DNA of 64,000 bases from contig JADKKE010000033.1 of NCBI GenBank assembly GCA_016720655.1, positions 177,923-241,922 on the forward strand, written 5' to 3'. The translations under genes were made by a program, and so were the position numbers. This DNA comes from Bacteroidota bacterium (GTDB taxonomy: Bacteria > Bacteroidota > Bacteroidia > AKYH767-A > 2013-40CM-41-45). Below, piece after piece: positions 11,455-35,848 of the stretch. The number at the start of each line of letters is the position of its first letter. Position 1 is the first letter of the stretch. Under the pieces are notes generated by a model. That model was not told where the DNA came from. It made no database searches and saw only the letters and a program-made list of their open reading frames with translations.

Positions 11455-14400
11455 TTACTGAACAGCGATACGGATTGTCCTGGCTTCTGTTCCTTCCTTC
11501 AACAAGGAGAGGAAGTATATACCGTAAGCATATTTGCTCATATCCAGTTCAGTGTAATTGTCGCCTTCATCAGCAGTAATTTCATGCTGCATGTAGATGT
11601 GTCCTACCATATCCGTAAGAATAAGAACATGTTTGTCTTTCTTATCAGAGCTGAAGTTTACTGTTAGTTTTCCAGCCGTTGGATTCGGATAGGCTTCAAA
11701 TGTTCCTGTGAAGTCTGTGGATTCTTCTTCAGCAGTACGACAAGTGAGTGTCACGGCTATAGTCTTACTTTGAATAGCAGACGGTCCGCAAAGGTTATTC
11801 GCTTTTACAGTGAGCACAGCGCTTGTAGAAGTGGCTGTAGTGAATTTCACTTTCACACTTGTTCCGGATGTACTTCCAACAAATGTTGCTCCGCCTGTTA
11901 TTGCCCAGGTGTAAGAAGTAGCACCTGTCACCGAAGCGATGGAATAAGTAACTGACGTTTGTGTTTTACAAACAGAAGCAGCTCCAGAAATAGTCCCGGG
12001 TTGAAGTGTTAATGCTGAAACACCCAGCGAAGAGATCGCACTTGATCCACAAGAATTATTTGCTGTAACAGTTACATTTCCAGTACCCGTGAAACTATTT
12101 CCATAAGTCACTTTAATGGAAGTTCCTGAATTGCTAGTGATACTAGCACCACTTGGAACAGTCCATGTATACGAAGTAGCTCCGGTCACTGCAGCAATAG
12201 AATATGTATTTCCGGATTTTCGACACACATTGCTTGTCGGCCCGGAAATTGTTCCCGGTGCAAGTGGTGTGGAACGAACGGCAAGAGTTGATACCGGGCT
12301 GCTTCCGCATGCATTCGTTGCGTAGACTGTCACATTTCCTGATGTAAATCCTGCAGGGAATGTGATGTATACCCTGTCGAAGGTGCTGTCAACCGTAAGC
12401 GGGTTTCCGGTTAATCCGGAGCCTTTGGAGATGACTGCACCCGCCGGAGCTGTCCATGTGTAAGAAGTTGCATTCGGGAATTTGTAAATTCTATACTCGC
12501 GCGTAGTACCAGCACAAACACCCATTGTTGGATTTTCCGATGAGGTGAATATCGGAGGGATTACCAGCATACCCAATACCAATTTCAATTGCGGGCCGCT
12601 TGTTCCGATGCAATTGCTTGCTTGTACAGCCAATAAACCAATTACATATCCTGTTACAAAATTAATTGTAATCGAATTTGTCCCCTGACCGGATGCGATG
12701 GTCGCTCCCGGAGCAATCAATGTCCATGTATAACTTGTTGCGTTGGCAACAGGAGCGATGGAGTAGGTTGCTGTTAAAGGACCACAAATTGTAGCAGGAC
12801 CGGTAATCGTTCCGGGTGTAGCGGGACTCGCAGTGAAACGCGTGAGTGATTTGCACGTGAAAATACTGTTGCCGCATGCATTCACTGCTTTAACACAGAG
12901 TAATCCGCCGCTGTAAGTGCTTCCGAAATTGACTGTAATTGATGCGGCGGTTGAAGAACCTGTCACACCTGTTGGCAATGTCCACACATAGGAAGTGGCT
13001 CCGGCAACAGGAGTGATGCTAAATACAACACCATTTTGTCCTCTGCATCCACCGGAAGGTCCGGTGATTGCTCCAGGTGCTGATGGCGCACTTCCTGACA
13101 CAACAATTACAGCTGTTGAAGCACTTGAACAGTTTTTGGAATCGGTCACCTGTACAGTATATATACCCTGAGCAAGACCAGAAATACTTGTTGTGGTTTG
13201 TCCGCCTGGTGTCCACAAATATGTGTAACCCGGTGTTCCTCCCGATGCAACAACTGAAGCCGACCCGGTGTTTCCGGTGCAACCTGTAGGTGTGACCGAA
13301 GTAACTCCACTGATTGCAGTAGGAACTGTAATTGTTGCAGAGGCAGAAGCCAAACATCCTTTCACATCGGATACAGTATAGGAATATGTCCCGGAAGAAA
13401 GTCCGCTAACCGGCGAACCTCCGTAAACATAGAATCCATTGCCACCGGTTGCAGACAATACAACACTTCCTGTTTGACCAAAGCAATCCGGATCGGTAGG
13501 TGTGGCGGTAAGTTCCAATGGAGTCGGAGCTGCATTAATAATTGCGACAGCTGTTGCGGTACAACCATTAATATCGGATACTGTATAGTTGTATGTTCCT
13601 TCACTGAGATTTGTGACAGCATCTCCACCGGTAGTGTAAGGTGCTGTACCTCCGGAAGGAGTTAAGGTTACACTTCCTGATTCACCAAAGCAATTCGGCT
13701 GAGTGGTAAATGCATTCAATACAACAGTTGAAGGAGCTGTATTGATTGTTACGAATACCATTTCACTACAACCATTCGAATCGTTTACAAAATAAGTATA
13801 CACACCTCCTGAGAGATTGCTAGTATTTGATCCGGAGAAGGTGTATGGTGGAATCCCTCCTGTTGCACTCAAGACTACATTTCCGGTCTGACCAAAACAA
13901 CTTGGTTGAGTTACAGAAACATTGAGATACAATCTTGGCGGGAACTGACTGATGATCACCTCAACTGTATTGCTGCAGCCATTATCATCAGTTACGGTGT
14001 AATGATAAGTTCCGGCATTGAGGTTCACCTGTGCATCGCCGCTATAGGTATAATTTCCTGTACCACCCGTAGCCGTCAGATCAACACTTCCGAATTCACC
14101 GAAGCAATGTGGTTGAGAAACATTCACATTCAATACGAGTGGATCAGGAATGATAAGTGATCCGTTTTCATATTGAACAGTATAATTGGAATCGGCAGCA
14201 AAGCTGAATCCGGATGGAACAATCTGATAGGTTCCTCCTTGTGTCAATGGACTCACGACCTGGTCAAGATCATCAAGAACAGTAAACGTTGGTCCGGATG
14301 CCGGTGTAACACCTGTTGAATCCTGGTTCTTAAATCCGGAAACAGTAGCTGTGAATGCAGGAGTTTCAAAACATGCGAGGTTCTGATCGTCTGCAGTTAC

Positions 14401-17400
14401 AGTAAGTGTTGCCGGGAGAATGGTGAGACTTCCCAGTTCGTAGCTGATATCAAAATTATCGGAGAAGAAAGCACCCGGTACTACGATCCATGTACCCACT
14501 GTTGTACCGGTGATAAGATTCACCGACTTGAGTTCGGTAGTAGTATCGGTTGAGGTAACATCATCTTCATCCAAAACAACTGCAATGTTATCGCCATTGT
14601 TGGTATTCACATCAATACTGTCTACTTGCGTCGTACCGTTGGTGATTACACGAGGATTGGTAATCACGCGTGGATTTGTAATCACCCGTGGGTTCGCCAT
14701 TGCGCGTGAATGCAATCCTGCACCCGGACTTTCGAGAACGATCAGCGAAGAATCCGCATCGAAATTGAACACCGATTCCGTAGCAAGATCGACGATGATT
14801 GTCGAATCTATTACAGTGAGTGTATTGGTGATAACCCTTGGATTTGTAATGACCCTGGGGTTCGCCAATGCATTACCTGTCGCAACGATTGCAAGATTTG
14901 CAAAGTCGGAGTTGGTGATCACGCGCGGATTTGTAATCACTCGTGGATTAACAAGAACCAGCGCATTCGACATTGTCAACTGGTGACTTTGCTGAATCGA
15001 ATCGAGGAAGTGAGCCTGATTAGAAGCATCAATATTCGACGGATCATAGATGTAATTAAACTGGAAATCACCGATTTTGTCACCATAAGTAAGGGTAGTA
15101 TCTTTTGGTGAAATCACGATAGGCATTTTCTGAATTGTCAAACCGCCCGGGTAGAAATGATATTCGTATTGAGCATTCAATGCCGAATCAATTGGATCGG
15201 AAAGATTGAGGGGAGACATGGAATTCGCTACCTGATACAAGCCAACACCACTTTCAGCAGTAGCAAGAGTTTGGTAGTTTAAGTTATCCAATTTCAATTC
15301 CGCAGCGGTGAGACTGTCTTCCGACAAATCTTTACCGTCAACAAGAATGGTCGAAGTGAACTCCGGTAATTTTTCTCCGTATTTCTTTGCCTTGTTGTCC
15401 ACCTGAACAGTGAGGACGCGTTTCACAGAATTGAAGAAGAACAAACCGTTGGAGAATCCGCCGTCATTCAGATTCGGAACTGTTGGAGGAGTATACACTT
15501 GAATGATCGGATTTCCCAGGAAGGTTGGAATCGTTGCAGTGAGGTGTGTATTGTCAATAAATATGGTGGTCAATGCCGTTCCATCCATATAGATAGTGGA
15601 TGAATCATCGAAATAAGCACCACTGACAGTAACATCAAAAACCACAGTTCCCGGAACAATCGAAGTATCTGGACGCATAAGAGAATCGATAACAGGTTTT
15701 CCTGTAGCGAAGCTGCTAATTGCTGCAGTAGCATTTATTAATCCGGCACCGGATTCATAGTCAAATCCACCGGCACCCATATCAATAGCCGTTGATTTCA
15801 AAATAGAACGCAGACTATCAGGAAGCATATTTTCAGAATAGAATTTCTGTCTTGCCTGAAGCACCAGAGCGGCGACACCCGCAGCATGCGGAGCAGCACA
15901 AGAAGTTCCATAGAAATTATAAACTCCATCCAGCTCAAGATCTTTCGAGAAGAAATTCACAGATGTATTTACTCCATCCGGAGCAGTGAAATCCGGTTTG
16001 TCGCGAACGACTCCGCGTACTGCTGTTCCACCAATAGAAGAAAACGGTTCTATTACCGGAGCAAGGTTGTTGTTGAACACCGGCGTTTGAGTATAACGTG
16101 CAGCACCAACAGACATTGCACCGTCAGCATTCGCTTGTCCAATAATCGTAGAACCTCCGTTTGGATATTCCTTGATTGTAATATCTCCACGATAAACGAC
16201 ATATTTGAATTTCATTGGTGTAACAGAATCAAGTGTCCAGGTACGTGAAATGATGATGTTGGCATCAACATCCGATTTCACAGTAAATGGCAATACTTCG
16301 ATTGGGTCACCCCAGTTGTTTTTGCGATTCAGTCCAAAGAGTTTGGTTCCGGTAACATCCGTGAGGTAAATATCAAAATCGTTTTGTGCACCGGGTAATT
16401 GCTTCAGTGAATAGATCGAATCATCCCATTGCAACACGAGCGTATAAGCTCCTTTTTTCAAACCGATTTTTTGAAGGTAATCTCCTCCGCCAAAATCATG
16501 CACCTTACCGGTAATTCCGGCAGGAGCAGGTATCGGATTGAATGTTCCCTCGAATGATGCATTGCCGAAGTTTCCGGCAGATGTGAAATAACTCACTCCA
16601 AGATCACGTACATAGTTTACGGCTTTCGAAACAATTCCATCCTGGAAATAAGGTTCTGTAATGTAGGTTACGTCATCAACGATTACATCGCAGGTATCTT
16701 CTGCAAGAGCAACAATTCCTTCAGCAAAATCTCCGGCACTGATAAATCCTGTGCGGAATGCAAGGGTTGCTTTTGGAGCAATGTCATGCACAATTTGTAG
16801 CATAGCACGCCCTTCATCCAAACCTTTACCAAACGGATAATCAAGCAACACTTCAACTTCTCTTGTGTTCACCGGATTGCCTGGACCTGGAAGATCTTTG
16901 TTTCCGATATCAATATTTTTCGGATTGCCTGAAATAGTATTATAACTATCGGACATCACACCAATCTTAATTCCTTCTCCATCCAAATCAAACATCGATC
17001 TGGCAGAATCAGATTTCATTGAACGATCACCTTGTGAGGTAATAAATCCTGCGCTGGAAACCGCTGAATAATTCGGTCTCACGAAATTGATCATGGATGG
17101 AAGCGAATCCAGTTTTTTCAAATTGACGATCGGGTAATAACCTGTGATGATGATGGATGTATCTCCGTTATCAATCAATCCGGTCATTCCATAAGGAGCT
17201 GTTTGCAACAAAGCAAGCGTTGGATAGTATTGATTGATATTGGTAATGACATCAATGAGGACAGAACCAAAATCATCGAATTGGAAGATGACGTTATTGG
17301 TGTCTGGTCCGATTGAATCCGGATTCTCATACAACTGTGTTAATTCCGGTCCGAGAACAGTAGTTACCTTTCCGGAATCAGGCGCGTTGTAATACGGAAG

Positions 17401-20400
17401 AATACAATTGGTTACAAACACTTCTGTGAAAGCGGTCAAAGAACAACCATTGTTATCAGTAAGCGTGTAACTATATGTTCCGGCAACAAGGTTTATCGTA
17501 TCTGATCCTGTAATTGTATACGGAGGAGTACCACCTGATGGTACTAGGGACAATGGCTCCGGTAGTAGAAGTTTCAAGACAAACGATAGTGCTATCTGTT
17601 ACTCCGGACAAAACAAGTACATCCGGTTGAGAAACAAAAATACTATCACTTGCACTACAACCAACACTATCAATTACTGTAAAATAGAGAACAGTGTCTG
17701 AACCCGAAAACGAGCCATAACTCTGAATGCCTGTTCCTGAGAATGGCGGGATACCTCCGTTTACAGAAACGTTTAGTGTAAACGATTCACCATGACAATT
17801 CGGTCCGGAAGCGGTTGCCGAAACAGACATAAAAGGTGAAACAATTATTGTCACACTTGAACAAGATCCCGGAGAGGCACAACCACCTTCACCCCGTACA
17901 AAATATTCTGTAGTGTCTGTTGGAGTGACGTCAATCGAGGAACCGGTGCCAACGACCAGACCCGATCCACAGCTATCTGCATACCATGTCCAGTCGGTTG
18001 CGTCATTGAGATTTCCGGAAACAACAGAGAGTGTTGTTGTTCCACCAGAGCAAATAATGTCTTGTGAGACTGATATTACCGGAACATCGGGTTCGTTACA
18101 ATTTCCGATTCCGATGGTAATCGTTGTATCAAAGGAACATGGTACTCCGTCTGTAATGCTGAGAGAATAACTTCCTGCGGAAAGTCCTGTGAAGGAACCG
18201 GTCGCGTTAGTGATGTTTACAGCACCACCATCGCTGATAGAGTAAGAGTAACCACCAATAACACCACCGCTTGCAGGTCCAACAGAAATAGACCCATCGG
18301 CTGCACTTGCGACAGATTCATTTACGACTACTACAGAACCCGGAAGAATTGGATCGAATTGATAGATCACAATAGTGTCTGTAGTCTGGCATCCAAATAA
18401 ATCTGTACCGATCACGGAGTAAGGAGTCACTACAGTAGGAGATACGGTGATGTAAGACGTTGTTTCGCCTGTATTCCAGAGATAGGAATTGGAACCACTT
18501 GCCGCCAACACAGTTGAAGAGCCAGGACAAATCTCCCAGTCAAAACTTGGCCCAGCATTTACTTGAGCATTTCTAATTTCGATCGGTTCAGAAATTCCAA
18601 CACAGGCACCGGATGTAACAGTTACAGAATAACTTCCCGGACCAGCAACAGCAATTGAATAAAGTGTTTCAGTAGTGGACCACAAATACGCATCGTAAGA
18701 TCGCGGAGCAATTTGTCCAATCGCAACTGCATCAATTTCATTCCAATCATGAACAAACGGAGAGTTCATAGCAATTCGTACTGCAGAAACAGGGAATGCT
18801 GTCATACTGAAACTGATGTGCAGTTTGTGAGCAACTTCAGGAAGTGAACCTGCCGTAGCTGTATAAACAACCTGATAGGAACTTGTATATGGATTTAAAA
18901 CATAAACAGTATCAATAGAACCCGGTGCATACGTTTCAAAGATGTCAATGAAGTTAATTGGCGCCGGATTTGCAAATCCTACTTCGATAAACTCACGTGA
19001 CTGATCCTGGTAATTCGGTGCCCATGCGTTGGCATTGTCACCGTATGCAGGATAAACGTTTGGTGCTCCAAGTATTTGAACTGCACCAAAGTCAGGAGTA
19101 GTGTATTCGCTGCTGAAAGCGATCACAGAATTTGCGTAGCGAAGATTGTTGTATTCGGAGACAATCAGGGTGTCACTGATAGAGTTACAAACAGGCATTC
19201 CTGCGATCAATGTGTTGGTAATAACCGGACGAAGAACCTGAGTTGTTGCATCTAAATCATTACAATCCGAACTGTCCAGCACATAACCACTGGGTTGGCC
19301 AATTGAAACCTGGCTCACAAATGGATTTCCGAAGGAATCTCCATCGGCATCTTCATAGTATGTCAGCGGAATTCCTTCATCAATATTTCCGTCACAGTTG
19401 TCGTCAATTCCATTGGCGATTTCACCGCCGGTTGAACTGCCATTGTACATGCGAAGAATTTCTTCTTCGGAAAGTTCTCTTCCATAAACCAGCACTTCGT
19501 CAATTTTCCCGTGAAAGAAATAGTTTAATACCGGACTTTCATCGGCACCAATAAGAAGTGCGTGACCGCTTGCACCAAAACTGATTGTAGGTTCGTAGCG
19601 ATAGGCAACAGGCACACCATCGATATAAAGTTTTGCTGTATCTGTATTCGAATTGAATGAGAAAGCCACATGCGTCCAATCGCCACTCGCTGAATATGGC
19701 GCATCAATAAATGCAGAAATCGGATCTGCACCATATTCATTACCAATAAAATCATCCGATAAGTTAGCATACAGGTTCCATGAATTGCCTGAACCTGCAC
19801 CAAATGCTTTGCTTAAAATTGTGGCATTTAATGGCGAGCCGGATGTCGGATTAATCCATGCAGCCAGAGTTAGATCAGAAACGTTGAAGCTACCGGTATT
19901 TGGCACTTCGATGTACGCATCAGTACCATTAAATTCATATGCATTATCCGCAACACCGAATCTATCAGTTGTTAGGGTTGCATTGTGAACGATTCCGTTG
20001 TTTCCTGCAGGGCCGTTGTCATTTGCATCTCCGTTGAAGGGAAGATACACAGCAGCTCCCGGTAACAATGAGAATGGAGGGTGAACATTTTGGTTGTTAT
20101 CATTACAATCAAACATATCAGTAACGTAACCATCCGGTGGAGCACAAATTGAGGCAACACTCAAAGGGACTCCTACGTTTCCGAATCCATCACCGTCAGC
20201 ATCCTGATATGCGGTAATAGTACTGATGTCCGAACAATTGCCTGCCATACTAAAGCCTGTTGGTTTTACCCAATTCGAAGTTGTACCGCTCAAATTAAAA
20301 TTATGAAGAGTACCATCACGGTTAAAACCGCTGGAATCTACCAACACATCAACAGCAGGCATGGTGTTATTGGCAAAAGCCACACCCTGATTAAAATTGT

Positions 20401-23314
20401 AGGACGCAACCATGCCAAATTGATAATGGGTCATTTCGCAGCTCATGTTGAGTTCAACTTCTGTTGCACAAAGAGCTCTGTCCCAGATTCTCAATTCATC
20501 AATCGAGCCTCTCCAGGATTCTCCACCATCCCATTGTGAACCGATCAATAAGGTTGCTACAGGGTTTAATGGCGGTACAGCGGTTGGACTTGGTATTGCA
20601 AATCCTCTTGTCTCCATCAGAACACCATCAAGATAGAAGTAGGTGTTGTCAGTGGTGCGAACAACAGTATAATTGTGCCAGGATAAATCCAAAGGAAACG
20701 GAACAGATGTATACCATGCATCACCGATACGGATAACCCCATCAAAGTTTTGTCCGATGTAAAAGTTTCGTCCTTGCGAAACGATATCAACCATTTCTCC
20801 AAAGATTGGATTGTCATATTTCGCCCAAATGGAAATTGAGTATGGACTATCATTTACAGGAATTACTTCACTCGGCACCTCTACGTAATCATCCGCCCCG
20901 TCAAAATGCAAGGCTTCTCCGGGAGAAGGAGGCAATGCTTCTCCAATTTGGAAATCACTGAATGATTGAAGTGCACCAACGGTGATGGATAAATTGTCAT
21001 TGTCATATACAGGAACGGAGAACCAGTCAGGATCATCGTATTTCGAACCGACAAAAAGGAATGGGTCGGCACTTGGATCTACATCGGTCGCTGCCCAGGT
21101 GAGATGTGCATCCAATCCCAGAATAGATGCGGTAGTGTTGGTGATCGTCCAGAATCTGTTTACACTTTTATCCTGATCAATTCCGGAAGTAACAATAGCC
21201 GGGTGATCGCCTGCTTCTGTTTTGGCAAGAATATAACCGGGATCTGTAATGGATGCAGTTAGTGTGAGTGGAACATAAGTATCCCCATCTCCAATATCGT
21301 ATGGTAAAGTAATGGAGTTGTTGAAGTAGCGCTCCATATTGCCGACTACATAACTGACTTCCGATGCGCCGGATACAGCAGTAGTTGCGCCAATCTTGAG
21401 GCTGTTACCACCGGTATAAATTTTACCCTGATCAAACAATAAATTTGCACTCACCAATTGATCACCATCGAGTGTAATATTATTGGAATTATTCAGACGC
21501 AAATTTGCAAATTCACCAGTACCTGTGATCCATTGCATATTTGTGCCACCCATATCAAATGCATCAACACTGATGATTCCGTTGTTTTGGATGGTGTCTC
21601 CAGTAAAAATCAATTCATTTCCTTGAAAAGTAGTGCCTGATTCAGTTTCAATTCTTCCTGCAAGTTCACCATTACTTCCATCAATACCCAAAGTGCCATT
21701 CTGGATTGAAAGATTACCGTAATTATTAAATGTGAAACCAGAGAAGAATGTAGAAAGGCCACCCCCGGATATGATCACTAAACCTCCAATATTATTATTA
21801 AAAATACCATCGGAAGTTGGTGAACTGATATCCGCATTATTCGTAATATCAAAAACAAAATAGTTGTTGAATACAGAACCATCAACAATAGTCATCAAAG
21901 TGTTCGAACTAAAATCACAAGTAGTGTAATTATTTAGTACAGCACCTGCTTCAAGACTATGATCAGAGTTTCCGTCGATTGAAAAACTACAACCCTGCCG
22001 TATATTAAAGACACCGGCCCCGCCGAGGTGTGTGAGCCCGCCCCAGTTAAACGACGATGAGCCCGTAAATTCAGCAACACCGTCAACGACAATAGAAGCA
22101 GTATTCATATTGATCGTACCATTACAGGTAAGATCATCACCAGCCCCGTTCAGCAAATGCAAAGTGCCTTCGGAGAGAGATAACTGTCCACCATTTTCGA
22201 TGACCAACTGATCTGCATCAATGCCTTGAGATGCATTTGAAATGTTATGACCGGCGCGAATTGTAATCACTCCGCTGTTTACTCCATCTGGTGCATCGGT
22301 AGCAGCAACCCAAAAGGTACCATCATATATTTCCCATGTTGTAGAGTCTCTCCAATTGCCACTACCCGAGGTGCGATAATCATAGTTCGGAGTTGGCAGA
22401 GTGAATTCCCAAAGCTCTGAACCATTTGCAGCATCAGTAGCTGCAACATACAAATGATTGTTGTAATTCCCACTTCCACTACCGGGAATGATATCTGCCG
22501 CTAAACTTACAGAGGATCCATCGTAGGAAAACAACTCTTGTCCGCTCGTTCCGTTATTTGCATTAAAATATATTTTTCCGTTATAAACGGTTAATTGTTG
22601 AGGAGTAGAGCTGCCAACACCCGGATTAATATCTGCAGCAAGTGACACAGTGCTTCCATTGTATTTCCACAGCTCACTTCCATTGGTACCATCATTTGCT
22701 GTAAAATATAAATCGCCGGCAAACCCAACAAAACTTGAAGGACCAGAACCAATTGCTCCAGGGCGGATGTCTGCAATAAAACTTATTGTGACGCCATCAT
22801 AAGAATAAAGTTCAGGTCCGGCCGTTCCGTTATTGGCCGTAAAGTACAGTTTGCCACCAAATACATAGAGCGATTGCGGTGAAGCATTTCCAGCACCTGT
22901 ACTGATATCCGAAACTCTCGATGCGGATATTCCATCATACACCCAAAGTTCTGTTCCGAAAACTCCGTCACTCGCCTGGAAATACAATTTGCTATTGTAA
23001 ACTGTGAGATAAGAGGGATTTGAACCAAGAGTTCCAACACGCACATCTGCTTTTAGGCTGGCAGATGTACCATTGAAAGCATACAACTCCGAACCGGTTG
23101 CGCCATCTGTAGCACTAAAAAACAGTTGTCCTGCATAGACAACAAGAGATTGAGGTACAGAATTACCAGTACCAGGATTGAGATCGGTGACCCGAGTCTG
23201 AGCAGTGATAGAATTCCTGCTAATGAGACTCATGAACAAGATAAAGAACAATACACTGAATGTTCGGTTCTTTACAGGTTGATTTTTGAAACTGTTTTGA
23301 AATTGTGTTTTCAT
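11455..23314 (-). CDS. Giant T9SS-secreted multidomain protein (about 3,950 aa), split by one frameshift near 17548
   Basis: ORF-track pieces 17471..23314 and 11455..17577 join at ...ETSTTGA|LSLVPSGGTPPY. The junction matches the continuous paralogue sequence TSTTGSLSLVPSGG. An extra C in gccatt is the likely cause. The N-terminal domains are a signal peptide, six ELWxxDG repeats, a beta-helix-like module, two LamG/ConA-like domains, two DADGDGFGN MopE-like motifs and SprB-type repeats. A subtilisin S8 domain follows (GIKIGVMSDSY...HDIAPKA...GTSCAAPHAAGVAALV). Then come the NPRVITN heptad block, an MBG-like domain, six or more SprB repeats, PKD-like domains and a T9SS CTD (YPNPTAGKLTVNF...). 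Confidence 0.8.
14644..14950 (-). repeat. NPRVITN heptapeptide tandem-repeat block in giant gene 1 (2+2+3 copies)
   Basis: The protein reads ...VLVNPRVITNPRVITNSDFANLAIVATGNALANPRVITNPRVITNTLTV...AMANPRVITNPRVITNPRVITNG. Codons vary between copies. Confidence 0.8.
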
Positions 23315-24094: not shown

Positions 24095-24142
24095 CAAACA
24101 ACCAAAAAGCCGGAGTTTATACCCCGGCTTTTTGGTTGTTTG
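24095..24142. terminator. Perfect 19-bp palindromic bidirectional terminator downstream of giant gene 2
   Basis: The element reads CAAACAACCAAAAAGCCGG-agtttatacc-CCGGCTTTTTGGTTGTTTG. Confidence 0.7.
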
Positions 24143-24197: not shown

Positions 24198-27100
24198 TTA
24201 ATCAACGGCAACACGGATACTTTGTGTACTTCCGTTTCCATTGTCAAGACTAAACATGTAGAGACCTGTTGCCGATTGGCTCAAATCAATTTCGAAGATG
24301 TTTTTGCCTTCAACAGCATCGATGATTTCCATGAACACAACATTTCCAAGGAGGTCAACCACTTTTGCGATGTATCGTGCTTTCGCTTCGGAATTGAAAC
24401 TTACCGTGAGTATTCCCTTGGTTGGATTTGGATATGCACTCAACGATTCAGAATTAATAGCATCCTGTTCTACAGTTCTGCAACCGGCATTGATGGCAAT
24501 TGTTTTTTGTGCAGGCTGACCTGGACCGCACGCATTGTTCCCGTTGACTTTAAGTGTTGCGCTTGCCGATAAAGAGTAGTTAAAGTTTAGAGTAGCACTT
24601 GTGCCGGTAGGGATCATCGATGGGCCACCGGTTACTGACCAGGAATAGGTATTCGCTCCCTGAATTGTCGCAATTGAGTATTGTTGTGTTGAACTTTTGC
24701 AAACAGAAGCGGGACCGGTGATAATTCCGGCTGCTGCAGGCCGGGCTGTTATGGAATAACAACGTGCCACACCGGCACCACATGCATTGGTTGCTGATAC
24801 ACAAATATTCCCTGTTCCCGTGAAGGCAGCGAAATTGACGGAGATGGAAGTGGATCCGGTAAGAGGAGTGAGTGCTGTTACTCCGGCAGGTATTGTCCAG
24901 CTATAACCTGTTGCACCTGCAATGGCAACAATTGAATAAGTTACATTGGTCATTCCGCAAACCGCACTATTAGGACCAGTAATACTTCCCGGTTGAGCAG
25001 GAGCAGAATGTATTGTATATGCACGACTGAAACTACCGCATGCATTTACTGTTGTTACAGTGAGCACACCACTTGTCCAGGTCGGACTGAAATTCACAAC
25101 ACAAGAATTGTTACTTGTAGAAGCAATGTTTGCATTTCCCGAAATGGACCAGTTGTATGAAGCAGTTCCGTTGACTGAGCCCATCGAATAGGTCACTCCC
25201 GAAGTTCCGGGACAAACAAATCCCGGACCAACCAATGCATTGGAATGTGTTGGTGTTCCTGTGATACTTAGCTGTCGGGTCGAGCTAATACCAATACAAT
25301 TACTTGCATATACATTTATTGTTCCTTGCCCGAATCCCGCTGGCACACTCACCTGCACACTGTTCGTTCCCTGACCACTGAGTAGTGTTACCCCGGTTCC
25401 GGAAACATTCCAAACGTAGCTCAGAGCGTTTGCAACTGCAGGAATTGCATAAGTGTATGTTGCGGGCCCACATGCAAGAGCAGGACCAGTAATAAATCCG
25501 GGGTTAGCAGGTTTTATAGCGAGGACAGGAACGTTTTTACAATTACTTATTCCATTACCACAATCGTTCACAGGTGTTACACAAATGAAACCACCATTGT
25601 AATTATTCGCGAATGAAACAGTAATTGAATTGCTGCTGGAAATTCCGGAACAACCACCCGGCATTGACCAGATGTAACTTGTTGCTCCGGGAACAGGCAG
25701 GATGGAATAAACAATTCCACTTGTATTTCTACAGGCACCGCTTGGGCCAGTGATTGCACCGGCATTTCCCGGACCCGATCCGGTGCTGGCAACAGCAATG
25801 GTTGCATTTCCAGAACATCCGTTTACATCCGTGATTGAAACAGAATAATTTCCTGCAGCAAGACCGCTTGCATTGGCAGTTGTTCCGCCAACAGGACTCC
25901 ATAAGTAAGTATAAGAACCGGTTCCTCCGCTGGCAACAACAGCTGCAGTACCATTACTGAATCCGCAATTATCAGGCGTGGAACTTGCAAGGCCTTCTAC
26001 TTTGGTTGGTTGGGTAAGAACAACAGATTTATTCACACTGCATCCATTGGCATCTGAAACTGTAAAGGTCCAAGTTCCCGCATTGTACGAGAATGTTCCT
26101 GTTCCTGTATAGGGAACAGAGCCGCCACTTGCTGTGATTGAAATATTTGCAAAACCATTGTAGCATGGAATAGTTCCTGCAGTTGCGTAAGCATACAATG
26201 TATCCGGTTCAATGATTGTTGCGGAGGATGTAGAAGTGCAACCATTTGAATCCATCACTGTGTAATAATAGACACCTCCGTGTAGATTGGATACAGAATC
26301 TCCTGTGAAAGTATACGGTGCAGTTCCACCATCACCGGTGAGACTCACACTTGCTGTCTGTCCGGCACATACAGGCTGCGTCGCGGATGCAGAAAGTACA
26401 AGAGGATCAGGGAGTGTGAGGGATCCGTTTTCATACTGAATAGTATAATTCGAATCGGCAGCAAAGCTGAATCCGGATGGAACAATTTGATACGTTCCAC
26501 CTTGTGTCAATGGACTAACGACCTGGTCAAGATCATCCAGAATTGTAAACGTTGGTCCGGATGCAGGGGTAACACCTGTGGAGTCCTGATTTTTAAATCC
26601 GGAGACTGTCGAGGTGAATGCAGGAGTTTCAAAACAGGCAAGATTCAGATCGCCTGCAGTGACAGTAAGTGTTGCAGGAAGAATGGTGAGACTTGCCAGT
26701 TCGTAGCGGATGTCAAAATTATCAGAGAAGAATGCGCCCGGAACTACGATCCATGTACCCACGGTTGTACCTGTGATAAGATTCACAGATTTGAGTTCGG
26801 TAGTGGTATCAGTTGAGGTAACGTCATCTTCATCCAATACAACCGCAATATTATCGCCGTTGTTGGTTGTTACATCAATACTGTCTACTTGTGTCGTACC
26901 ATTGGTGATCACACGCGGATTGGTAATTACACGTGGGTTGGTAATCACGCGTGGGTTCGCCATTGCACGTGAATGCAATCCTGCTCCCGGACTTTCGAGA
27001 ACGATCAGTGAAGAATCCGCATCGAAATTGAATACCGATTCCGTAGCAAGGTCGACGATGATTGTCGAATCGATTACAGTGAGTGTATTGGTGATAACCC

Positions 27101-30100
27101 TAGGATTCGTGATGACGCGTGGATTTGCCAATGCATTTCCTGTCGCAACGATTGCAAGATTTGCAAAGTCAGAGTTGGTGATCACACGCGGATTGGTGAT
27201 CACTCGTGGATTTACAAGAACCAGAGCATTCGACATTGTCAACTGGTGACTTTGTTGAATCGAATCGAGGAAGTGAGCCTGATTAGCAGGATCAATATTC
27301 GACGGATCGTAAGTGTAATTAAACTGGAAGTCACCGATCTTGTCACCATACGTGAGTGTGGTATCTTTTGGAGAAATCACGATTGGCATTTTCTGGATTG
27401 AAATTTTACCAGGAAAGAACACATACTCATAGGTAGCCGCAAGTGCCGAATCTACAGGGTCATTAAGGTCGAAAGGCGGTCTGGATGCAGCAAGTTGATA
27501 GTTTCCAACTCCGCTTTCGCTGGATGCAGCTGTTTGGTAAATCAGATTGTCAAGGCCTACATCTGCTAATGAAAGATTGTGGTCGGAGAGCAATTCACCA
27601 TCAATCAAAATGGTGGCAGTGAATTCAGGAAGCTTTTCTCCATATTTTTTAACCTGGTCATCAGTCTGAATTGTCAGAATTGGTTTCACGGAATTGAAGA
27701 AATACAAACCATTGGAGAACCCGCCATCATTGCCATTTGGAGACATTGGTGGATTGTATACCCTGATAATAGGATTATCGCTGAAGACAGGGAACTCACC
27801 TGACAAATGATTTTCATCAATAAAGACCGTTGGGATTTCTACACCATTCAAATAAATGATTGATGAATCAGTAAAATAAGTCCCTTGTACAATAGCAATG
27901 ATTGGAGCTGTGCCCGGGGTGACGGCAGCCGTTGTTTCGATGAGTGAATCAATTACTGGTTTAGGTGTTGCGAAGGAACGGATCGCAGCAGCAGCATCGA
28001 TCAATCCTGAACCTGAAGAAAAATCAAATCCAGGTGCTCCCATATCCACAGCAGTAGATTTAAGAACGGATCGCAAAGAATCCGGCAACATTTGTTCGTT
28101 ATAAAACTTCTTCTTCGCTTGTAAAACAAGTGCGGCCACACCAGCAGCATGCGGAGCAGCGCAGGATGTTCCGTAGAAGTTATACAAATTGTCGTGCTCT
28201 TCATCTTTGGAATAAAAATTCACAGAGGTATTGACTCCATCCGGAGCAGTAAAGTCCGGCTTGTTGCGCACCTGTCCGCGCACGGGTGCTCCACCTACTG
28301 AAGAGAATGTTTCGATGATTGGAGCAGCATGATTGAAGACAGGAGTTTGTGTATAGCGCGCCGCTCCCACTGACATAGCACCATCGCAATTGGCCTGGCC
28401 AATAATCGTTGACCCACCATTTGCATGCTCATCAATGGTCATATCGCCACGGAATACTACATATTTAAAATGCATCGGCGTGACAGAGTCCTGAGTCCAT
28501 GAACGGACAATCATTATGTTTGCGTCCACATTTGACTTAACCGTGAAAGGCAGGACTTCAATAGGATCACCCCAGTTATTTTTTCTATTCAGTCCAAATA
28601 ATTTTGTTCCTGTGATATCTGTCAGGTATACATCGTAATCGTTTCGGGCTCCAGGTAATTGTTTCATTGAATAAATGGAATCATCCCATTGCAATACCAA
28701 AGTATAGGCACCTTTTTTCAATGAAATTTTTTGCAAATAATCCCCCCCTCCAAAATCATGTGCTCTTCCAATGACTCCGGCCGGAGCTTGCATGGCGTTG
28801 AAAACACCCTCATAAGAAGTATTTCCAAAATTTCCGGCAGATGTGAAATAACTCACACCCTGATCTCTTACATAATTTACAGCCTGGGAAACAATTCCAT
28901 CCTGAAAGAATGGTTCTGTTATATACGTTACATCGTCCACGATCACATCACAGGAGTCTTCCTGAAGAGCAACGATACCTTCGGCAAAATCTCCGGCGCT
29001 GATAAATCCAGTTCGGAATGCAAGCTTAGCCTTTGGAGCGATGTCATGTACGATTTGCAACATCGCGCGTCCTTCATCCAGCCCTTTGCCGAGCGGGTAT
29101 TCAAGGACAACTTCTACCGGTTCGGTATTGACTGGATTTCCCGGTCCTGGTAAATCATGGTTGCTGATATCGATATTTTTCGGATTTCCGGAAATGGTAT
29201 TGTAGCTGTCGGACATGACACCGATTTTGATCCCCGATCCATCGAGACCAAACATTGATCGCGCAGAATCAGATTTCATTGAACGATCTCCTTGCGAATT
29301 GATAAAACCTGCAGCGGCTACCGGAGAATAATTCGAGCGGGCAAAATTGATCAGTGCAGGAATCGAATCCAGTTTTTTCAAATTTTCGACGGGAAAATAA
29401 CCGGTGATTGTAATTGTTGTATCACCGTTATCTATAAGACCTGTCATTCCATACGCTGGTGATTGCAACAAAGCATATGTTGCAGGGTACTGATTGATAT
29501 TGGTAATTACATCAATCAAAACATCACCCAAACTATCAAATTGAAAGATGACATTATTGGTTTCCGGGCCTATCGAGTCAGGGTTCTCGTACAATTGTGT
29601 CAATTCAGGACCAAGTACAGTATTCACTTTTCCGCTATCCGGTGCATTGTAATACGGGAGAATGCAATTGGTAACAAAAACTTCAGTGAGTTTCGTAAGA
29701 GAACAGCCATTGTTATCGGTAAGCAGATACGAATAAGTGCCTGCGACCAGATTGCTTGTATCTGAGCCGGTGATAGAGTAAGGAGAAGTACCTCCGGATG
29801 GAACCAGCGATAAACTTCCTGTTGTTGAAGTCTCCAGACAAACAATAGTGCTGTCAGTAATTCCGGCTAACACAAGTGCATCGGGTTGGCTTACAAAAAC
29901 ATTAGTTGCAGCAGTACAACCTGCATTATCAGTAATCGCATACATGAAAGAAGTATCGGCAGCACTAAATCCGGAAAATGACTGTGCACCATCATTGAAA
30001 TAAGGAGGAGTTCCTCCGCTGCCGATTACATTGACAAGAAAACCATCGCCATGGCAATTCGGTGAAAAAGGAGTCACGGAAATTCCAGGAGTTTCATTAA

Positions 30101-33100
30101 CTGTGATAGAAATGATGCCACAAGAACCCGGCGTTGAACATCCACCTTCACCTCTTGCAAAATAGGTAGTTGAAAGGAGGGGAGTCACGGTTATCGAAGG
30201 ACCATTCCCGATGGGTGAGCCACCACATGATCCTTCGTACCAAAACCAGTCGGTTGCATCGTTTAAATTTCCGGAAGCGATCGAAAGAGTTGTACTGGCG
30301 CCACTACAAAGTATTGTGGAGCTTGCAGAAATCGTTGGAACATCTGGTTCATTGCAAGCGGTCAACAATTCTCCAACCTGAAAATCTCCAAAAGTAAAGA
30401 CACCGGCAATTGAAAGATCCGTAGCATTTTGAGCAAAAGTTGACATGGAGCCCCAGTTCGGAGCATTGTATTTATATGCAACAAAATTGGATGGATTAGC
30501 ACCCGCATCAACATCCGCCGTATCCCAATATAAATACACATAACAAGCATTATTCGTTAGCGCATCTGTTTCGATATGGTAATTTTTATTTACTGTTTTT
30601 GCCGTGTTAAGTCCTGAGGAAGCAATTGCAGGATGATCACCCGCATCTACGCTTACCGTTACAGTACCATTCGTGAGCATACCATTCGGCAAAACTCCGA
30701 TACGTCCAAAATGAATTGAATCGCCAACTTCAAAATAGAAGAGAAATGGAGTTGCAAAATAATGCGACATATTTCCGTCAACCCAACTAAACGAACTTGT
30801 TGCAGTTGATACATTCGTATCCATGATCATTGTGTAGGGACGAACATGAATAATTCCAAGACCAAATATCACATTGTTGACAATGGTTTGATCGGATCCC
30901 ATTCTCAGACCATTTGCATTGTACATGTATAAATTGCTGATCCTTCCCATTGTGCTTCCGCCCAAATACTGGCGGTTAAGACCATCGAAAATCAGGTTGT
31001 TCAATGCAATTGTTCCATCATTAATGATCGTATCACCTGTAAAATGCATCTCTTCATTTCCTGCAAGTGTTGCACCGGATTGAATTTCATAATATCCTGA
31101 ATGGACACCTATATTTCCAGCAATACTATAGGGAGTATTTATGGTAAAAGAGCCGCTACTTACAATAACTCTTCCGTAATTATTAAATACAACATCATCA
31201 AAGGAACCGGTGCCGGTTGACGTTTCGCCATTTCCGTTTTTCACAATTATTCCACCCGGCATGTTGTTTACGAATGCATCAAAATCGAGCGCTCTGAAAT
31301 CATCATCACTATTGATGTTGAGTGTTCCATAATTGTTAAGAAACGTACTATTGAAAATCTGGATAGCTCCGGTGTCCCAGTTGCAGGTAGAATAATTGTT
31401 CAGGATGGTTCCGTTTGTCAGGCGGTGGTCGCCTGCTCCATTAATTGTGAACGTTGCACCACTTTGAATATCCATCGTTCCATCTGAGCGGATGACAGAG
31501 AAGTCATTCCAAGTGAATGATGCGGTGTTTTCAATTACCACACTGGCGGAATTTAAACGTAAGGTCCCGGAAGTGATAAAGCTTGTTCCGGTAATGATAA
31601 ATGAACCCTGGCAACTAAAATCTGTTCCGGCTCCATCATTTAAATCAAGCCTTCCATTTATTATGGAAAGCGATGCGAGCGGAGTGACAGTCAATTCATC
31701 AGCAGTTTGGTTTGTTGTAATTGCAATATTGTGATTAATTGTAATGGTACTATCGGACGCAGAAGGAGGAACGGAGGCTGTAATCCAGGTGCAACCGTCA
31801 AATACTTGCCAATTTCCAGCAACACTCCATTCACCATCAGCTTGTGTTCGGTATTCATTTGTCGTAATACACTCATCAATTACACTGTTGCAATTGTCAT
31901 CGATCCCATTGAAAAGAATTTCCGTTGCTCCCGGATTTGCCAAGGCATTGCTGTCGTCGCAATCTGTGCTGTCCGCAACATAATTCAGTGGAGCGAGGCA
32001 ACCGGCATATAAAAATTGAGTTTGATCTCCATATCCATCTCCGTCTCCATCCAGGTAATAAGGGACCAGAACACATGGTGTATCGATGGTAAAACTTGAC
32101 ATTTCTGACCCCGTACATTCGGATGCACTACCACCGGCGTTATAAGGATAAACGACTATGATGTAATGACCAATCGCCGGCATTGGAATGTCGAAACTGG
32201 TTCCCACAATTACTGTGTCAAAGCTAAACGAGTTGGAAGGTTGATCATTACCCGAAATCGTGTAGAAAGTGGCTTCAGGAATTGGATCAAAAGAAATGCT
32301 GAGATTCGGACTGCTGTTTGGATCTGTAGTGGAGCCTTGAAGTGGTAATGTGATCGTTGTTAAACATGGAGGAGCAACGTATTGAAAAAACGTTTTTAAA
32401 CTTAAGCCCCCTCCAAAACAACCGGCATCATTTCTTGAACCATCACTGATATCATTGTATCCCGGATTTGGGTCTCCGCCATTGATAGCATCGGAGCCGG
32501 GGAAAAGAGCGCCATCGGAAACAACGATTGTATTGGAAGTCCCTGTATTCGTATTGTCCGGAGTAAAACCTGCACTGAAATCAATGCCGCTGCCGGATTC
32601 TTTTCTGAAGAAGTTATAATTGAATTCCGCAGGCTGACCATCCAGAACCTCGTAGCCGAAAGTAGTACATTCATTTACATAAATCAGATTGTTTTGACAA
32701 GCCAATTTGGTCCACCGGCAAAACAAGCGGCAATATTGCACGAACCCTTACTGATAATGGTATTGTTTACAAAAAAGCTGTTGCCGGCATTGTAAACAGC
32801 AGTTGTATTCGCCAGACCACTGGGTCCGAGACCTCCTCCTTGCCAGAGCATAGAAAGTAAGTTGTTCGAGATGTACAGTGGATTTTGGTTGTTGGTAAGC
32901 AAGATTGCATTTCCGGTCTGTGTGATGTAAACCTGATTGCCAAGAATCAGGATTTGCTCATCTGTGTTTGTCGCATTTGCAATATTTATTCCATCACCAT
33001 CGGCAAACACATAGCATGCCCGAATGACACCACGACCCGTTGTAATGCCAGTTCCACTTCCGCTTTGGAAAACAGAATCACGTTCAAGAATGGGAACGCC

Positions 33101-35848
33101 CGGAGCAGAACTCAGTTGCATCGTTCCATAAATTGCACAATCCTGCACAATCATGGTATCATCAGTCAAAGAGTTATTGTAGACCGAGCCGTTGGTTAAC
33201 TTAGCATTATAGATTTTCCATCCACTCTGCAACACCACATCACCTGTGATACTGAATTTTTCTCCATTTACTGCAGTGTTGAATACCAGAAAACCAAGGC
33301 CCGGATCTCCGGAGCTAATGGTTTCAGGATAAGATAAACCGCCTGCGCGCGGATAAACTAAAATTGTATCTCCTGAAACGGAAGCAGTGATGGCATCTCC
33401 GATTGTTGTGAATGCACCATTCAATCCGTTTTCTTCAACGTAGTGAGTTGTGGGTGGTACAAGTGGCAAAGCTTCTCCTATTTCTACATCTCCGGACGAT
33501 TGAATTCCGGAAATGGAAATGGAAAGATTGTCTGTGCTATTCACAGTTAATGGAAGCCAATTCGGGTTGTTATAAATAGCAGCAGAAAAATTAAAGGGGT
33601 CTGCTATTCCATCCAAATCACCTGGAGCCCAATTTAAAAACGCTTCTGCTGTGCTAAAATTTGTGCCCACATCAGTAATCGTCCAATGACGGTTCACACT
33701 TTTGGTTGCATCAATCCCGGAAGTCGCTACAGCCGGGTGATCACCTGCATCAGTTCTGACCAAAATATACCCCGGAGTTGAAATGGTTGGATTCAAATCA
33801 ACCTGAAGATATTGAGTCTGGTCACCAACGAAAAATGGCAGTGTTCCGGAATTTGCGAAATAACGTTGCAAATTTCCATCGATATAACTCGTGCCGGAAG
33901 CTCCTAATACAGCCGTGGTTTCACCAATTAGAAAACTATTATTTCCTGTATGGATAACTCCGTTGTCAAACAATAAGTTTGCAGTAATAGTCTGATTGCC
34001 TGTTAATGTAATTCCACTCGGGTTGAAAATATGCAGATTCGTAATTTCGCCATTGCCACCAATTATTTGTGCGGAAGTTCCGGACATATCAAAAGCATCG
34101 AAGGCAATCGTTCCGTTGTTCACGATGCTGTCGCCGGTAAAAGTCCACTCGTTCCCTGTTAAAGCAGCGCCGGGTTCAATTTGATAATAGCCAGGGTTTA
34201 CGCCATTGCTTCCATCAATTTGAATCGTTCCCTGATCAATAATGACTGTTCCATAGTTATTAAAAGTGAAACCGGAAAAGAAAATGGATACACCGGTTCC
34301 GCTATTTTCAAGGATTGAACCTGCCAGATTGTTAAAGATTCCATCAGAAGTTGTAGAGCGTATGTCTCCATCATTATCAATATTAAAAGTACCATGGTTA
34401 TTAAAAACTGAACCATCCAGAATTCTCAACTCTCCGGAATCACTCCAGCTACAGGTTGTGTAATTGTGAAAAACACAACCTGATTCCAGGAATGCAGGCG
34501 AAGAAATGTTGAATCCATTTAGCGCTCTTACATTGTATGTGCCGGTACCACCGACATGTGAATCGCCTCCCCATGAAAAATCGCCATCTGTAGGTATTTC
34601 AACTACACCATCATTGACAATTGTTCCGGTGTTTAAATTCAGTGCTCCAAAACATACAAGATCATCACCAGCACTGTCGAGCACTGTGAGCGTGCCTTCT
34701 GAAATAAAAAGGGCTCCGCCATTTTGTATCACGATCTGATCTCCGGAAATGTTTTGTGAGTTATTTGAAATATTATAACCGTTTCGAATTGTAATCACTC
34801 CACTGTTCGTGCCATCAGGAGCGAAACTTGCAGGGATCCATGAAGTGCCATCAAAAACTTCCCAGGCAAGCGGGTTGTTCCATCCAAATAATCCTGCAAC
34901 AGATCGGTAGTCACCTGTTTCTGCGGGCGAGTATTCCCAAAAATCTGTTAGGAAAATTGATCCATCGCTTCCCGTTCCCAGAAATCCTTTACTGGCGATT
35001 GAAAAACCAGGGGCTCCGGTTCTTCCGACAGCTGGAAAATCTGAAATTGCCAGCCAACTGTTAGAGCCAGGATCATAACTATAAAAATCACTTGGATAAT
35101 TAGGAATCAAATCTTGCCCCAATCCAACATATGCTAAACCATTCACCGCAAAGCCGGAAGCATCGTATCTTGCCTGCCCGGGAAATGAAGCTTTCGCTGT
35201 CCATGTATTGATTGAAGGATCGTATTCGTAGAAATCATTTAGAGCACTTGCATTTAAACCAGTGCCTACATAGCCTTTTGATCCAATTGCAATTCCTACG
35301 GCCAGAGTACGCGGTCCGCCGGGTAATGAGGCAATGGAAGTCCATGAATCAAGAATGGGATCGTATTCCTCAAAATCATCAAATGTTCCGCCTGAACCGA
35401 TATTGAAGCCGGTTCCAACATATCCTTTGCCATTCACTGAAAAAGCGACAGCTTGGTTCTGGCAACAGAAAGCATGTTTGCTTTCTGTACCCATGTGTTG
35501 TTGGAAGGATCGTATTCATACAAATCGTTGTGGTTTATTATTCCATCCGATCCAGTACCTACATATCCTTTTGCCCCAATTGAAAATGCCGCCGCATTGA
35601 TTCGTGGATTACCGCCAAAATCAGCCAGCTGGGTCCAGGTATTTATTGTAGGATCGAATTTCCACCAATCCTTTTCTATGCTTCCTGTTTGACCTAAACC
35701 CATATACCCATTGCTTCCAATGTTGATGGCCACACCTCCGATCGACCTGCTCCCGCAAATCAGATTTTCGCTCCCAGGAATCAGATTGCGCTTGATTGTT
35801 TAAATAGAAGAATAACAAGGATAATGTAGTGAATACCAGTTTTTTCAT
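24198..35848 (-). CDS. Giant T9SS-secreted multidomain protein, paralogue of gene 1 (about 3,880 aa), split by three or more frameshifts
   Basis: The start codon at 35848 opens with MKKLVFTTLSLLFFYLNNQAQ. Frameshifts lie near 35780, near 35470 (a T5 run that should be T6; this restores ARTKLSLFSVNGKGYVGTG) and near 32700 (an aaa/aaaa run; the piece 24198..32741 has no ATG). The domains are Kelch-like repeats (YVGTG...YEYDP.NTW), two beta-helix modules and a YYLDGDGDGYGD MopE-like motif. Further on are SprB repeats, the S8 peptidase, the NPRVITN block, an MBG-like domain, more SprB and PKD-like repeats and a T9SS CTD (YPNPTKGILTVSF...). Confidence 0.75.
26903..27215 (-). repeat. NPRVITN heptapeptide repeat block in giant gene 2
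   Basis: The protein sequence is identical to the block in gene 1. The DNA is about 90 % identical. Confidence 0.8.

Follow-up and report, generated by a model that had tools for sequence, protein, structure and literature searches.

Tandem giant genes for predicted T9SS-targeted subtilase-like surface proteins with different heads and an apparent glutamate at the position of the catalytic histidine

We describe here two neighbouring giant genes on the minus strand of a contig from an uncultured Bacteroidota bacterium of the Bacteroidia (GenBank assembly GCA_016720655.1, contig JADKKE010000033.1, positions 177,923 to 241,922), which are predicted to encode surface proteins with a mid-chain subtilase-like unit that are exported by a type IX secretion system (T9SS). 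All positions are given in coordinates of the window, i.e., of the whole 64-kb stretch of DNA that was analysed. Several described systems come close to this pair. The gliding adhesin SprB carries a type B C-terminal sorting domain (CTD). In the clostridial Csp proteases the prodomain stays bound once it has been processed, and one of them, CspB, has a canonical Ser/His/Asp triad. The base element of S8 peptidases is the His64-Gly65 dipeptide (PMC11593635), whereas S53 peptidases possess a homologous Glu in place of the S8 His, with a non-homologous Asp as the acid and an Asp as oxyanion residue (PMC6278154). Finally, a report on Bergeyella cardium (PMC11982257) describes subtilases of S8 fold with propeptides as proposed T9SS cargo.

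The pair belongs to a protein family that is known by database name ('S8 family serine peptidase' or 'MBG domain-containing protein') and is uncharacterised; the two genes are unusually large members of it. A search with the core of ~1,100 aa recovered >2,665 proteins (90% clustering), mostly of 1,400-1,900 aa, from Chitinophagaceae and other Bacteroidota, all of which combine S8, MBG_2 and CTD domains. An exhaustive search retrieved 3,810 representatives (50% identity) at E<=1e-30, giants of 3,400-4,260 aa among them; giant relatives include proteins of 4,259 aa (P0132) and 3,691 aa (P0144) and an open reading frame (ORF) of >3,288 aa (L001). A literature search for the family, or for a subtilase with Glu in place of His, found no specific paper. 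The preliminary description of the locus, which was made from the sequence alone, had called such proteins poorly characterised; this holds for the literature, yet the family is large and already named in databases.

Genome scans identified the nearest relatives in metagenome-assembled genomes (MAGs), namely those of an uncultured Flavobacteriales member (L001, 89% identity in the peptidase) and of a member of Bacteroidia (L002). Two further homologues, of ~4,000-4,900 aa and with 77% and 70% identity, are encoded by non-adjacent loci of ‘Ca. Pollutiaquabacter aromativorans’ (L003 and L004; CP185379.1, 3.58 Mb and 2.66 Mb), the closest named relative of the host organism, and are probably missing or fragmented in the protein annotation of that MAG. 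The MAG is designated ‘complete’, and each giant homologue in it has two apparent single-base frameshifts, at positions other than those discussed below. A homologue from a Blastocatellia MAG (L017) keeps the motifs DEG..AM and HD.AP.

The explanation that in our opinion fits the locus best, and that we consider reasonably probable, is that of an anciently duplicated, separately transcribed pair of T9SS surface proteases with different heads, in which the frameshifts are most likely assembly errors, a tract of ~1 kb has undergone gene conversion and the active site appears to have the Glu-Gly arrangement of the family.

The two paralogous loci fill positions 11455-35848, from the ATG of gene 2 at 35848 to the stop of gene 1 at 11455, as established from the ORF list and from mapping the three minus-strand frames. 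In the assembly both are interrupted, gene 1 by one frameshift and gene 2 by four; in the map, the frame of gene 1 changes between 17474 and 17598 and that of gene 2 around 35770-35740, 35450 and 32700. Gene 1 (11455..23314) was stitched from two overlapping ORFs (23314..17471 and 17577..11455) into a conceptual protein of 3,952 aa, and gene 2 (24198..35848) from four fragments (35848.., 35799..35437, 35515..32687 and 32747..24198) into one of 3,883 aa. The preliminary description had announced two adjacent minus-strand genes of ~3,900 aa over 24 kb; the loci and their ends are as it placed them, but the frameshifts went unmentioned and the sizes apply to the stitched proteins, not to the genes as assembled. 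Both conceptual proteins are collinear over most of their length, with 40% identity at aa ~100-890 and 63% over the ~1,980 C-terminal residues. The main differences lie in the type of propeller and in the central block, which consists of two LamG domains in gene 1 and of another beta-rich module plus a second module of ~500 aa in gene 2. A terminator-like hairpin with a 20-bp stem (24095..24142, minus strand) is located ~55 nt past the gene 2 stop (5 such sites in the terminator scan vs 0.5 expected), and the spacer between gene 2 and gene 1 measures 883 bp; the genes are therefore probably separate transcription units.

Domains were assigned to the gene fragments with Pfam and NCBIfam hidden Markov models (HMMs) at curated cut-offs. 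Gene 1 encodes five ELWxxDGT repeats, two Laminin_G_3 domains, Ig_7, five SprB repeats, Peptidase_S8, a CoaZ-type repeat, two MBG_2 domains, five PKD_6 domains and Por_Secre_tail/TIGR04183. In gene 2 we found Kelch repeats, Cu-binding_MopE, Ig_7, Peptidase_S8, two MBG_2 domains, two SprB repeats, five PKD_6 domains and, again, Por_Secre_tail/TIGR04183. The SprB repeats (PF13573) score 91 bits in five stretches in gene 1 and 33 bits in two stretches in gene 2. Type A T9SS sorting domains occupy the extreme C-termini, at 11485..11691 in gene 1 (PF18962, 41 bits, cut-off 27; TIGR04183, 30 bits, cut-off 23) and at 24222..24434 in gene 2 (44 and 30 bits), and both N-termini are signal-peptide-like by eye: they open with basic residues and have a hydrophobic segment and an AQ/AQS motif. 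These searches bear out most of the architecture first proposed, i.e., the sorting domain, S8, SprB, MBG-like and PKD-like domains in both genes, ELWxxDG repeats and two LamG domains in gene 1 and Kelch-like repeats in gene 2; all the peptide motifs quoted at the time were also found in the sequence.

The five single-base frameshifts are, judged by comparison with relatives, most likely assembly or sequencing errors. In gene 1, a gap in the DNA alignment and a three-frame comparison revealed one extra base relative to gene 2 at 17540..17560 (~17554, minus strand) in ...ACCGGAGCCATTGTCCCTAGTACCA..., with the corrected reading TTGA|LSLVPSGG; where gene 2 reads ...TSTTGSLSLVPSGGT..., gene 1 reads ...TSTTGA and then, in frame +1, LSLVPSGGT. 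The uninterrupted ORF of L001, the gene 1 orthologue with 80% aa identity, crosses this break, as does protein P0020. In gene 2, three 1-nt deletions at the 5' end (~35773, ~35741 and ~35456; 35456..35773, minus strand) emerged from a MAFFT alignment with L020, a syntenic contig (GCA_017990035.1, JAGNOP010000226.1) of 98.1% nt identity to window positions 38081-32953. The deletions sum to -3 and the body of the gene returns to the ATG frame, while the shifted stretch hits a stop at 35624; around the first two, substitutions as well separate the window from L020. The corresponding protein of that contig, P0261, is 97% identical in aa (98.1% in nt) over the first 965 aa of gene 2 and has an intact frame. 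It was found with a chimeric query over all break points, the output of which was otherwise dominated by Kelch proteins. The fourth lesion in gene 2 (32695..32705, ~32700, minus strand) was deduced from protein homologues: P0020 and the L001 ORF align gapless over the stitched ...GGPNWLVKNNLIY..., which places it in a run of four A, where a run of five would restore ...GGPNWLVKNNLIYVNE....

The most serious alternative is that this strain has lost the function of one gene or of both through real mutations that turned them into pseudogenes, gene 2 above all, with translation from its ATG ending after ~75 codons. As assembled, the 24 kb do contain five frameshifts, and where gene 2 begins, three of them crowd into 317 nt. 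Such crowding is tighter than a uniform error rate predicts and speaks against our explanation, since it would fit a real inactivation of this gene. On the other hand, the fragments show no in-frame stops or other decay, and conserved domains on both flanks of every break score normally. At four of the five sites the frame is unbroken in relatives, both in the contig of 98.1% identity and in orthologues that are farther removed. Seven frameshifts exist in the whole window, most beside short base runs, and two of them interrupt unrelated genes at T and A/C runs; the related, long-read-style Pollutiaquabacter MAG is broken in a similar manner at non-homologous sites. This pattern of indels across the window and in the MAG favours consensus errors in an indel-prone assembly, and we hold pseudogenisation, that of gene 2 included, to be rather unlikely. 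A programmed frameshift at a conserved site in gene 1 was also considered and rejected, as the break in Pollutiaquabacter lies ~30 codons away in another context.

The subtilase-like unit deserves special attention. It occupies 15685..17430 in gene 1 and 27948..29690 in gene 2 (both minus strand), the former being 83% identical to the latter, which was modelled. PF00082 matches both units well above the cut-off of 21.8 bits (50.4 in gene 1 and 59.3 in gene 2), covering profile positions 159-288 and 140-288, respectively, i.e., the C-terminal half only, and a PDB sequence search with the whole peptidase domain gave alignments limited to the Ser-motif region of several subtilases. The AlphaFold2 model of the gene 2 unit (581 aa, 52-sequence input; residue numbers below are those of this unit) reached a pLDDT of 85.7 and a pTM of 0.87. 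It consists of a prodomain-like region of beta-alpha-beta-beta-alpha-beta order (57-119), the subtilase core and a beta-sandwich insert of ~130 residues (~292-420) that immediately follows the oxyanion Asn. In Foldseek, the model matched CspB, CspA, CspC and pro-subtilisins in unprocessed form best among PDB structures (E 5e-18 to 1e-10); for mature subtilisins, TM was 0.73-0.77 (normalised to target) with a Foldseek probability of 1.0.

Conservation of the active site was assessed in 115 close relatives, in 133 diverse representatives and in the 52-sequence alignment. Ser509 of GTSCAAPH (codon 15901-15903 in gene 1, 28164-28166 in gene 2) begins a model helix (508-530) and is invariant apart from one Thr. 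The oxyanion residue Asn287 of SAGN (16564-16581 in gene 1) is invariant in 115 and 131 sequences and aligns with Asn155 in the AAGN of subtilisin BPN'. Glu206-Gly207 of DEGRAM (Glu codon 16813-16815 in gene 1, 29073-29075 in gene 2) shows no variation in 127/127 diverse representatives, and Glu206 is conserved at >=90% in the 52-sequence alignment. Met210 is near-invariant (115/115 close relatives, 129/130 diverse representatives), Asp253 is invariant, and Asp205, Glu206, Asp252 and Asp253, at the edge of the active site, are conserved at 94-100% over >130 diverse representatives.

In the model, helix 206-217 starts at Glu206 and runs directly into the AP-x-A strand. Glu206 and Ala218 are 12 residues apart, exactly as are Glu78 and Ala90 of kumamolisin (sequence checked against 1GT9). 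The same spacing presumably results for His64 to Ala85 of subtilisin once the calcium loop 75-83 is subtracted, a segment that is apparently missing from the family protease. By spacing and by the model helix, no His was found at or near the His64 position at the start of helix C. From spacing, predicted secondary structure and conservation, the family protease appears to pair the nucleophile Ser509 with the base Glu206, with an oxyanion hole of S8 type and either Asp161 or Asp253 as acid. We tentatively propose, as a possibility well short of an established assignment, that the family represents a third catalytic type within the subtilase fold, intermediate between the S8 and S53 peptidases: it would combine an S8-type Ser motif and an Asn oxyanion residue with Glu-Gly for His64-Gly65, would do so without the S53 Asp at +4 and would tolerate Asn at the Asp32-like site. 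In this clade the unit would be carried mid-chain in surface proteins of ~4,000 aa, and self-cleavage at the prodomain would cut the protein in two.

Several observations tell against Glu206 as the base. In HMMER, a profile of the N-terminal half gave marginal S8 matches in the PDB (E 0.04-0.1), which were gapless and placed His64 opposite the non-conserved Tyr198 (Tyr/Phe/Leu); in our judgement, it is the missing calcium loop that forces this register. In hhalign comparisons of the family profile with kumamolisin and BPN' (local and global), reliable alignment was limited to the AP strand and to the part around AGN. The global alignment sets kumamolisin Glu78 opposite Arg208 and is not significant, and the alignments of the helix with S8 and S53 are weak and conflict in register. 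Finally, the invariant His311, located in the insert, could serve as an alternative base.

A canonical S8 enzyme, with Asp in GVMSDSY (16942-16962 in gene 1), His in VHDIAP (16774-16791) and Ser in GTSCAAPH, is what the preliminary description had suggested in speaking of an active-looking subtilase. The Pfam match above the cut-off, the S8-typical Ser and AGN motifs and the presence of His215 in ~95% and of Asp216 in ~96% or more of the relatives are in line with it. Of the three residues, however, the Ser alone is secure, together with the conserved oxyanion Asn. The Pfam match leaves out the Asp and His regions, and hhalign aligned VHDIAPKAKLAF with BPN' residues 81-92, so that His215 corresponds to Leu82 and not to His64; in this register it sits at that end of helix C which is most distant from the catalytic Ser, beside the N-terminus of the next strand. 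His215 is replaced by Tyr, Asn, Arg, Gln, Phe or Ser in 3/115 close and 6/130 diverse relatives, and Asp161 is Asn in 13/115 and 30/125 (11-24%), whereas Glu206 never varies. Ser160-Asp161 ends a strand in the model, and HMMER sets Ser160, not Asp161, opposite Asp32. A canonical triad thus seems improbable to us.

We likewise give little credence to a unit that is inert, or that acts only on itself like the pseudoprotease CspC, within proteins that are merely adhesins or stalks. Such a role would suit the top fold matches, which include CspC, the non-canonical site without a His64 equivalent and the adhesin-like remainder of the architecture (SprB, PKD, Ig, Kelch and LamG). Yet pseudoenzymes usually lose the nucleophile, whereas here the Ser, the Asn and the four acidic residues at the edge of the active site are kept across diverse representatives and the domain is under strong purifying selection.

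The history of the pair was traced by comparing both genes directly. A single long blastn match joins 14134-17672 with 26397-29931 at 76.5% identity, the offset falling from 12,263 to 12,259. In sliding windows, ~90% nt identity is confined to ~985 bp, 14145..15129 in gene 1 and 26408..27392 in gene 2 (minus strand), which encode the linker between the MBG domains; the remainder of the shared block is 55-81% identical. Codon-wise Nei-Gojobori scans of synonymous (dS) and nonsynonymous (dN) divergence gave, over the protease region (17553-15754), dS of 1.1 to >3, i.e., saturation, dN of ~0.04-0.2 and aa identity of 77-93%; in the tract at 15033-14134, dS drops to 0.3-0.6 and aa identity rises to 92-100%. 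The edges of the tract are abrupt, with 1-7 mismatches per 30 nt within and 8-19 beyond.

Saturated synonymous sites along with high aa identity indicate that the protease part is an old duplication kept by purifying selection. Within the conversion tract the two genes share 97% aa identity, while each is 62-68% identical to the Pollutiaquabacter homologues, which in turn share 67% with one another; this points to concerted evolution in this genome rather than constraint and supports a gene-conversion tract of ~1 kb that homogenised the MBG linker between both copies. Extreme purifying selection as the cause of the 90% tract was ruled out, as the Pollutiaquabacter homologues differ there by 32-38%. 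The SprB/PKD arrays downstream are only 26-53% identical in aa between gene 1 and gene 2.

Some of what had been proposed for this block needs correction. The ~90% identity first reported for 14150-17547 and 26412-29810 is in fact 76.5%, and the suggested gene conversion of the protease core is at odds with its saturated dS, conversion having affected only the linker tract with the MBG and NPRVITN elements. A tandem duplication with module shuffling, on the other hand, agrees with collinear homologues that differ in central and N-terminal modules, and the flanking SprB arrays are indeed much more diverged. That the pair is an assembly artefact, one gene doubled or made chimeric in a long, repeat-rich region of an evidently error-prone assembly, is hardly conceivable, because the copies are 24% apart in DNA with saturated synonymous sites and unlike N-terminal and central modules, even the most similar tract differs by 10%, and independent contigs show the same junction from the neighbouring glycosyltransferase gene to the gene 2 5' end and reproduce part of gene 1.

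The conversion tract contains clusters of a hexapeptide, NPRV(I/V)T(N). There are seven hexapeptides per gene, in a 2+2+3 layout and with varying synonymous codons (minus strand; 14641-14694, 14827-14862 and 14914-14949 in gene 1, and 26904-26957, 27090-27125 and 27177-27212 in gene 2). The clusters are kept in both Pollutiaquabacter homologues (L003, 12476-12785; L004, 12480-12810), and none was found in 120 other family members, so they have been seen in this clade only. To judge from these sequences, the hexapeptides are under selection at the peptide level; a role as processing sites is a possibility.

Further modules distinguish the heads of the two proteins. Behind the signal-peptide-like N-terminus of gene 1, five ELWxxDG(T) repeats (approximately 22325..23176, minus strand; TIGR04534, 226 bits, 5 stretches) form a putative beta-propeller. 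At window position ~22466, a 99%-identical short-read contig (ENA ERZ23795167; L019, 545-848) has 303 extra bases, about two ELWxxDG repeats, which reflects either strain variation in repeat number or a collapsed repeat in the window. The Laminin_G_3 block of gene 1 (19457..20872, minus strand; PF13385, E 8e-43, 2 stretches) comprises a second domain at 19457-19930 and a first one with an approximate boundary, and has no counterpart in gene 2. The head of gene 2 carries Kelch repeats (34910..35799, minus strand; Kelch_1/3/4/6 on both fragments), again a putative beta-propeller, inside which the three clustered frameshifts fall and which is intact in P0261. Motif searches located the DxDGDG-type motifs DADGDGFGN (20177-20203) and DADGDSFGN (19325-19351) on the minus strand in gene 1, to which they had first been ascribed; a MopE-like DxDGDG motif is also present as one copy in gene 2, and it is the sole one passing the Pfam threshold.

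A module of ~500 aa, beta-solenoid-like and followed by a beta-sandwich, is present once in gene 1 (20915..22402, minus strand) and twice in gene 2 (33449-34951 and 30348-31850; blastp identities 40% and 31%). It matched no Pfam family even at E<=1. Its AlphaFold model (pLDDT 81.7) shows a stack of short beta-strands and then the sandwich, and Foldseek gave only weak matches, the best (E 7e-4, TM 0.13-0.29) to tailspikes and autotransporter passengers, with polygalacturonases at E>0.5. The module is plausibly a generic beta-solenoid. Its earlier designation as a pectate-lyase-like beta-helix was right about the second copy in gene 2, but the identity as pectate lyase was dropped for want of HMM support and with weak, generic fold matches.

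The 64-kb window is unusually dense in T9SS cargo, at least four other genes besides the pair bearing a CTD. Three more genes possess type A T9SS tails (38376-40343, 43868-45565 and 53219-57541), one of which encodes a multicopper oxidase. In another T9SS cargo gene, with PKD, Ig_7 and SprB domains and a CHU_C type B tail (45644-50286, minus strand), one base is missing from a T-run near 47110, which leaves ORFs of 1,061 and 490 aa. A small lipoprotein-like gene (57671-58496, minus strand) is frameshifted near 58060, at an A/C-run, and appears as two overlapping ORFs. The gene immediately upstream of gene 2 encodes a PMT_2-family glycosyltransferase (36576-38072, minus strand), and this order is kept in L020 (1-1506); it may be connected with glycosylation of the cargo.

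The sequence features suggest how the two proteins may work. A Sec signal peptide and a type A CTD would direct export through the T9SS, after which the CTD would be removed and the protein fixed to the cell surface. That further genes of the window bear a CTD speaks for an organism with a T9SS; the absence of T9SS machinery genes from the 64-kb window is a point on the opposite side. At the distal end, the head would be formed by the ELWxxDG propeller and two LamG domains in gene 1 and by the Kelch propeller and extra beta-rich modules in gene 2. It would be followed by a beta-solenoid and Ig/SprB stalk, the mid-chain pro-subtilase, the MBG domains, the SprB/PKD_6 spacers by the anchor and finally the CTD. 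This would produce a long surface-tethered protease whose head chooses what is bound. The protease is conserved while the heads differ, which suggests one enzyme with two specificities, for substrates or for surfaces, the paralogues aiming the same protease at different targets via their heads. The internal prodomain-like unit leads us to expect that the chain cleaves itself into two fragments, and the halves may stay together as in the Csp proteases.

Seen in this way, the locus is a case of ordinary paralogue diversification in T9SS cargo, i.e., one enzyme with different binding heads and a short conversion tract. It also calls for caution, as frameshifts in error-prone assemblies readily break up giant genes, which are then lost from protein databases. 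The point of greatest interest, in our opinion, is the apparent Glu-for-His active site predicted at the level of the family: thousands of Bacteroidota surface proteins labelled 'S8 serine peptidase' appear to lack the catalytic His and to have an invariant Glu in its place. If true, this would be a new catalytic arrangement in a textbook protease fold, with a bearing on how abundant environmental bacteria digest or grip particulate substrates.

Compared with subtilisin BPN' and other S8 peptidases, the unit shares the fold, the GTSxAxPH nucleophile motif, the AGN oxyanion motif and the PF00082 match. It differs in the Glu-Gly that by spacing takes the His64 position, in the apparent absence of calcium loop 75-83, in the S-D/N-S-Y of the Asp32 region, which is one residue off register, and in the beta-sandwich insert of ~130 residues. 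With kumamolisin and the sedolisins (S53) it has in common a Glu at the start of the helix leading into the AP-x-A strand, with identical spacing from Glu to Ala-Pro, but the S53 Asp at Glu+4 is Met210 here and the oxyanion residue is the S8-like Asn287 instead of Asp. No S53 chains were recovered by profile search, and none occurred among the 50 Foldseek matches listed. In structure, the clostridial Csp proteases match best (E 5e-18 to 6e-16) and resemble the unit in the retained prodomain and in an inserted beta-rich domain; sequence identity, however, is 12-16%, and they act in spore germination of Firmicutes, unlike T9SS cargo of Bacteroidota. The subtilases of Bergeyella cardium (PMC11982257) are small, of the KP-43 subfamily and of a different family from ours; our query matched KP-43 (1wmd) poorly in Foldseek.

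The SprB and RemA gliding adhesins of Flavobacterium are, like the present proteins, giant repeat-rich T9SS cargo with SprB repeats, but SprB has no protease domain, and gene 1 and gene 2 carry the type A CTD; no gliding context or neighbours of an sprC/sprD-type operon were evident in the 64-kb window. The closest system of all is the Bacteroidota S8/MBG family of T9SS cargo, which shows the same core of ~1,100 aa, made up of prodomain-like region, subtilase with beta-sandwich insert, MBG_2 domains and type A CTD, with 40-55% identity over its full length and all family-invariant residues. In contrast to its usual members of 1,400-1,900 aa, the proteins described here reach ~3,900 aa; binding and stalk modules at the N-terminal side add ~2,000 aa, and there are additional SprB and PKD_6 arrays and the NPRVITN clusters.

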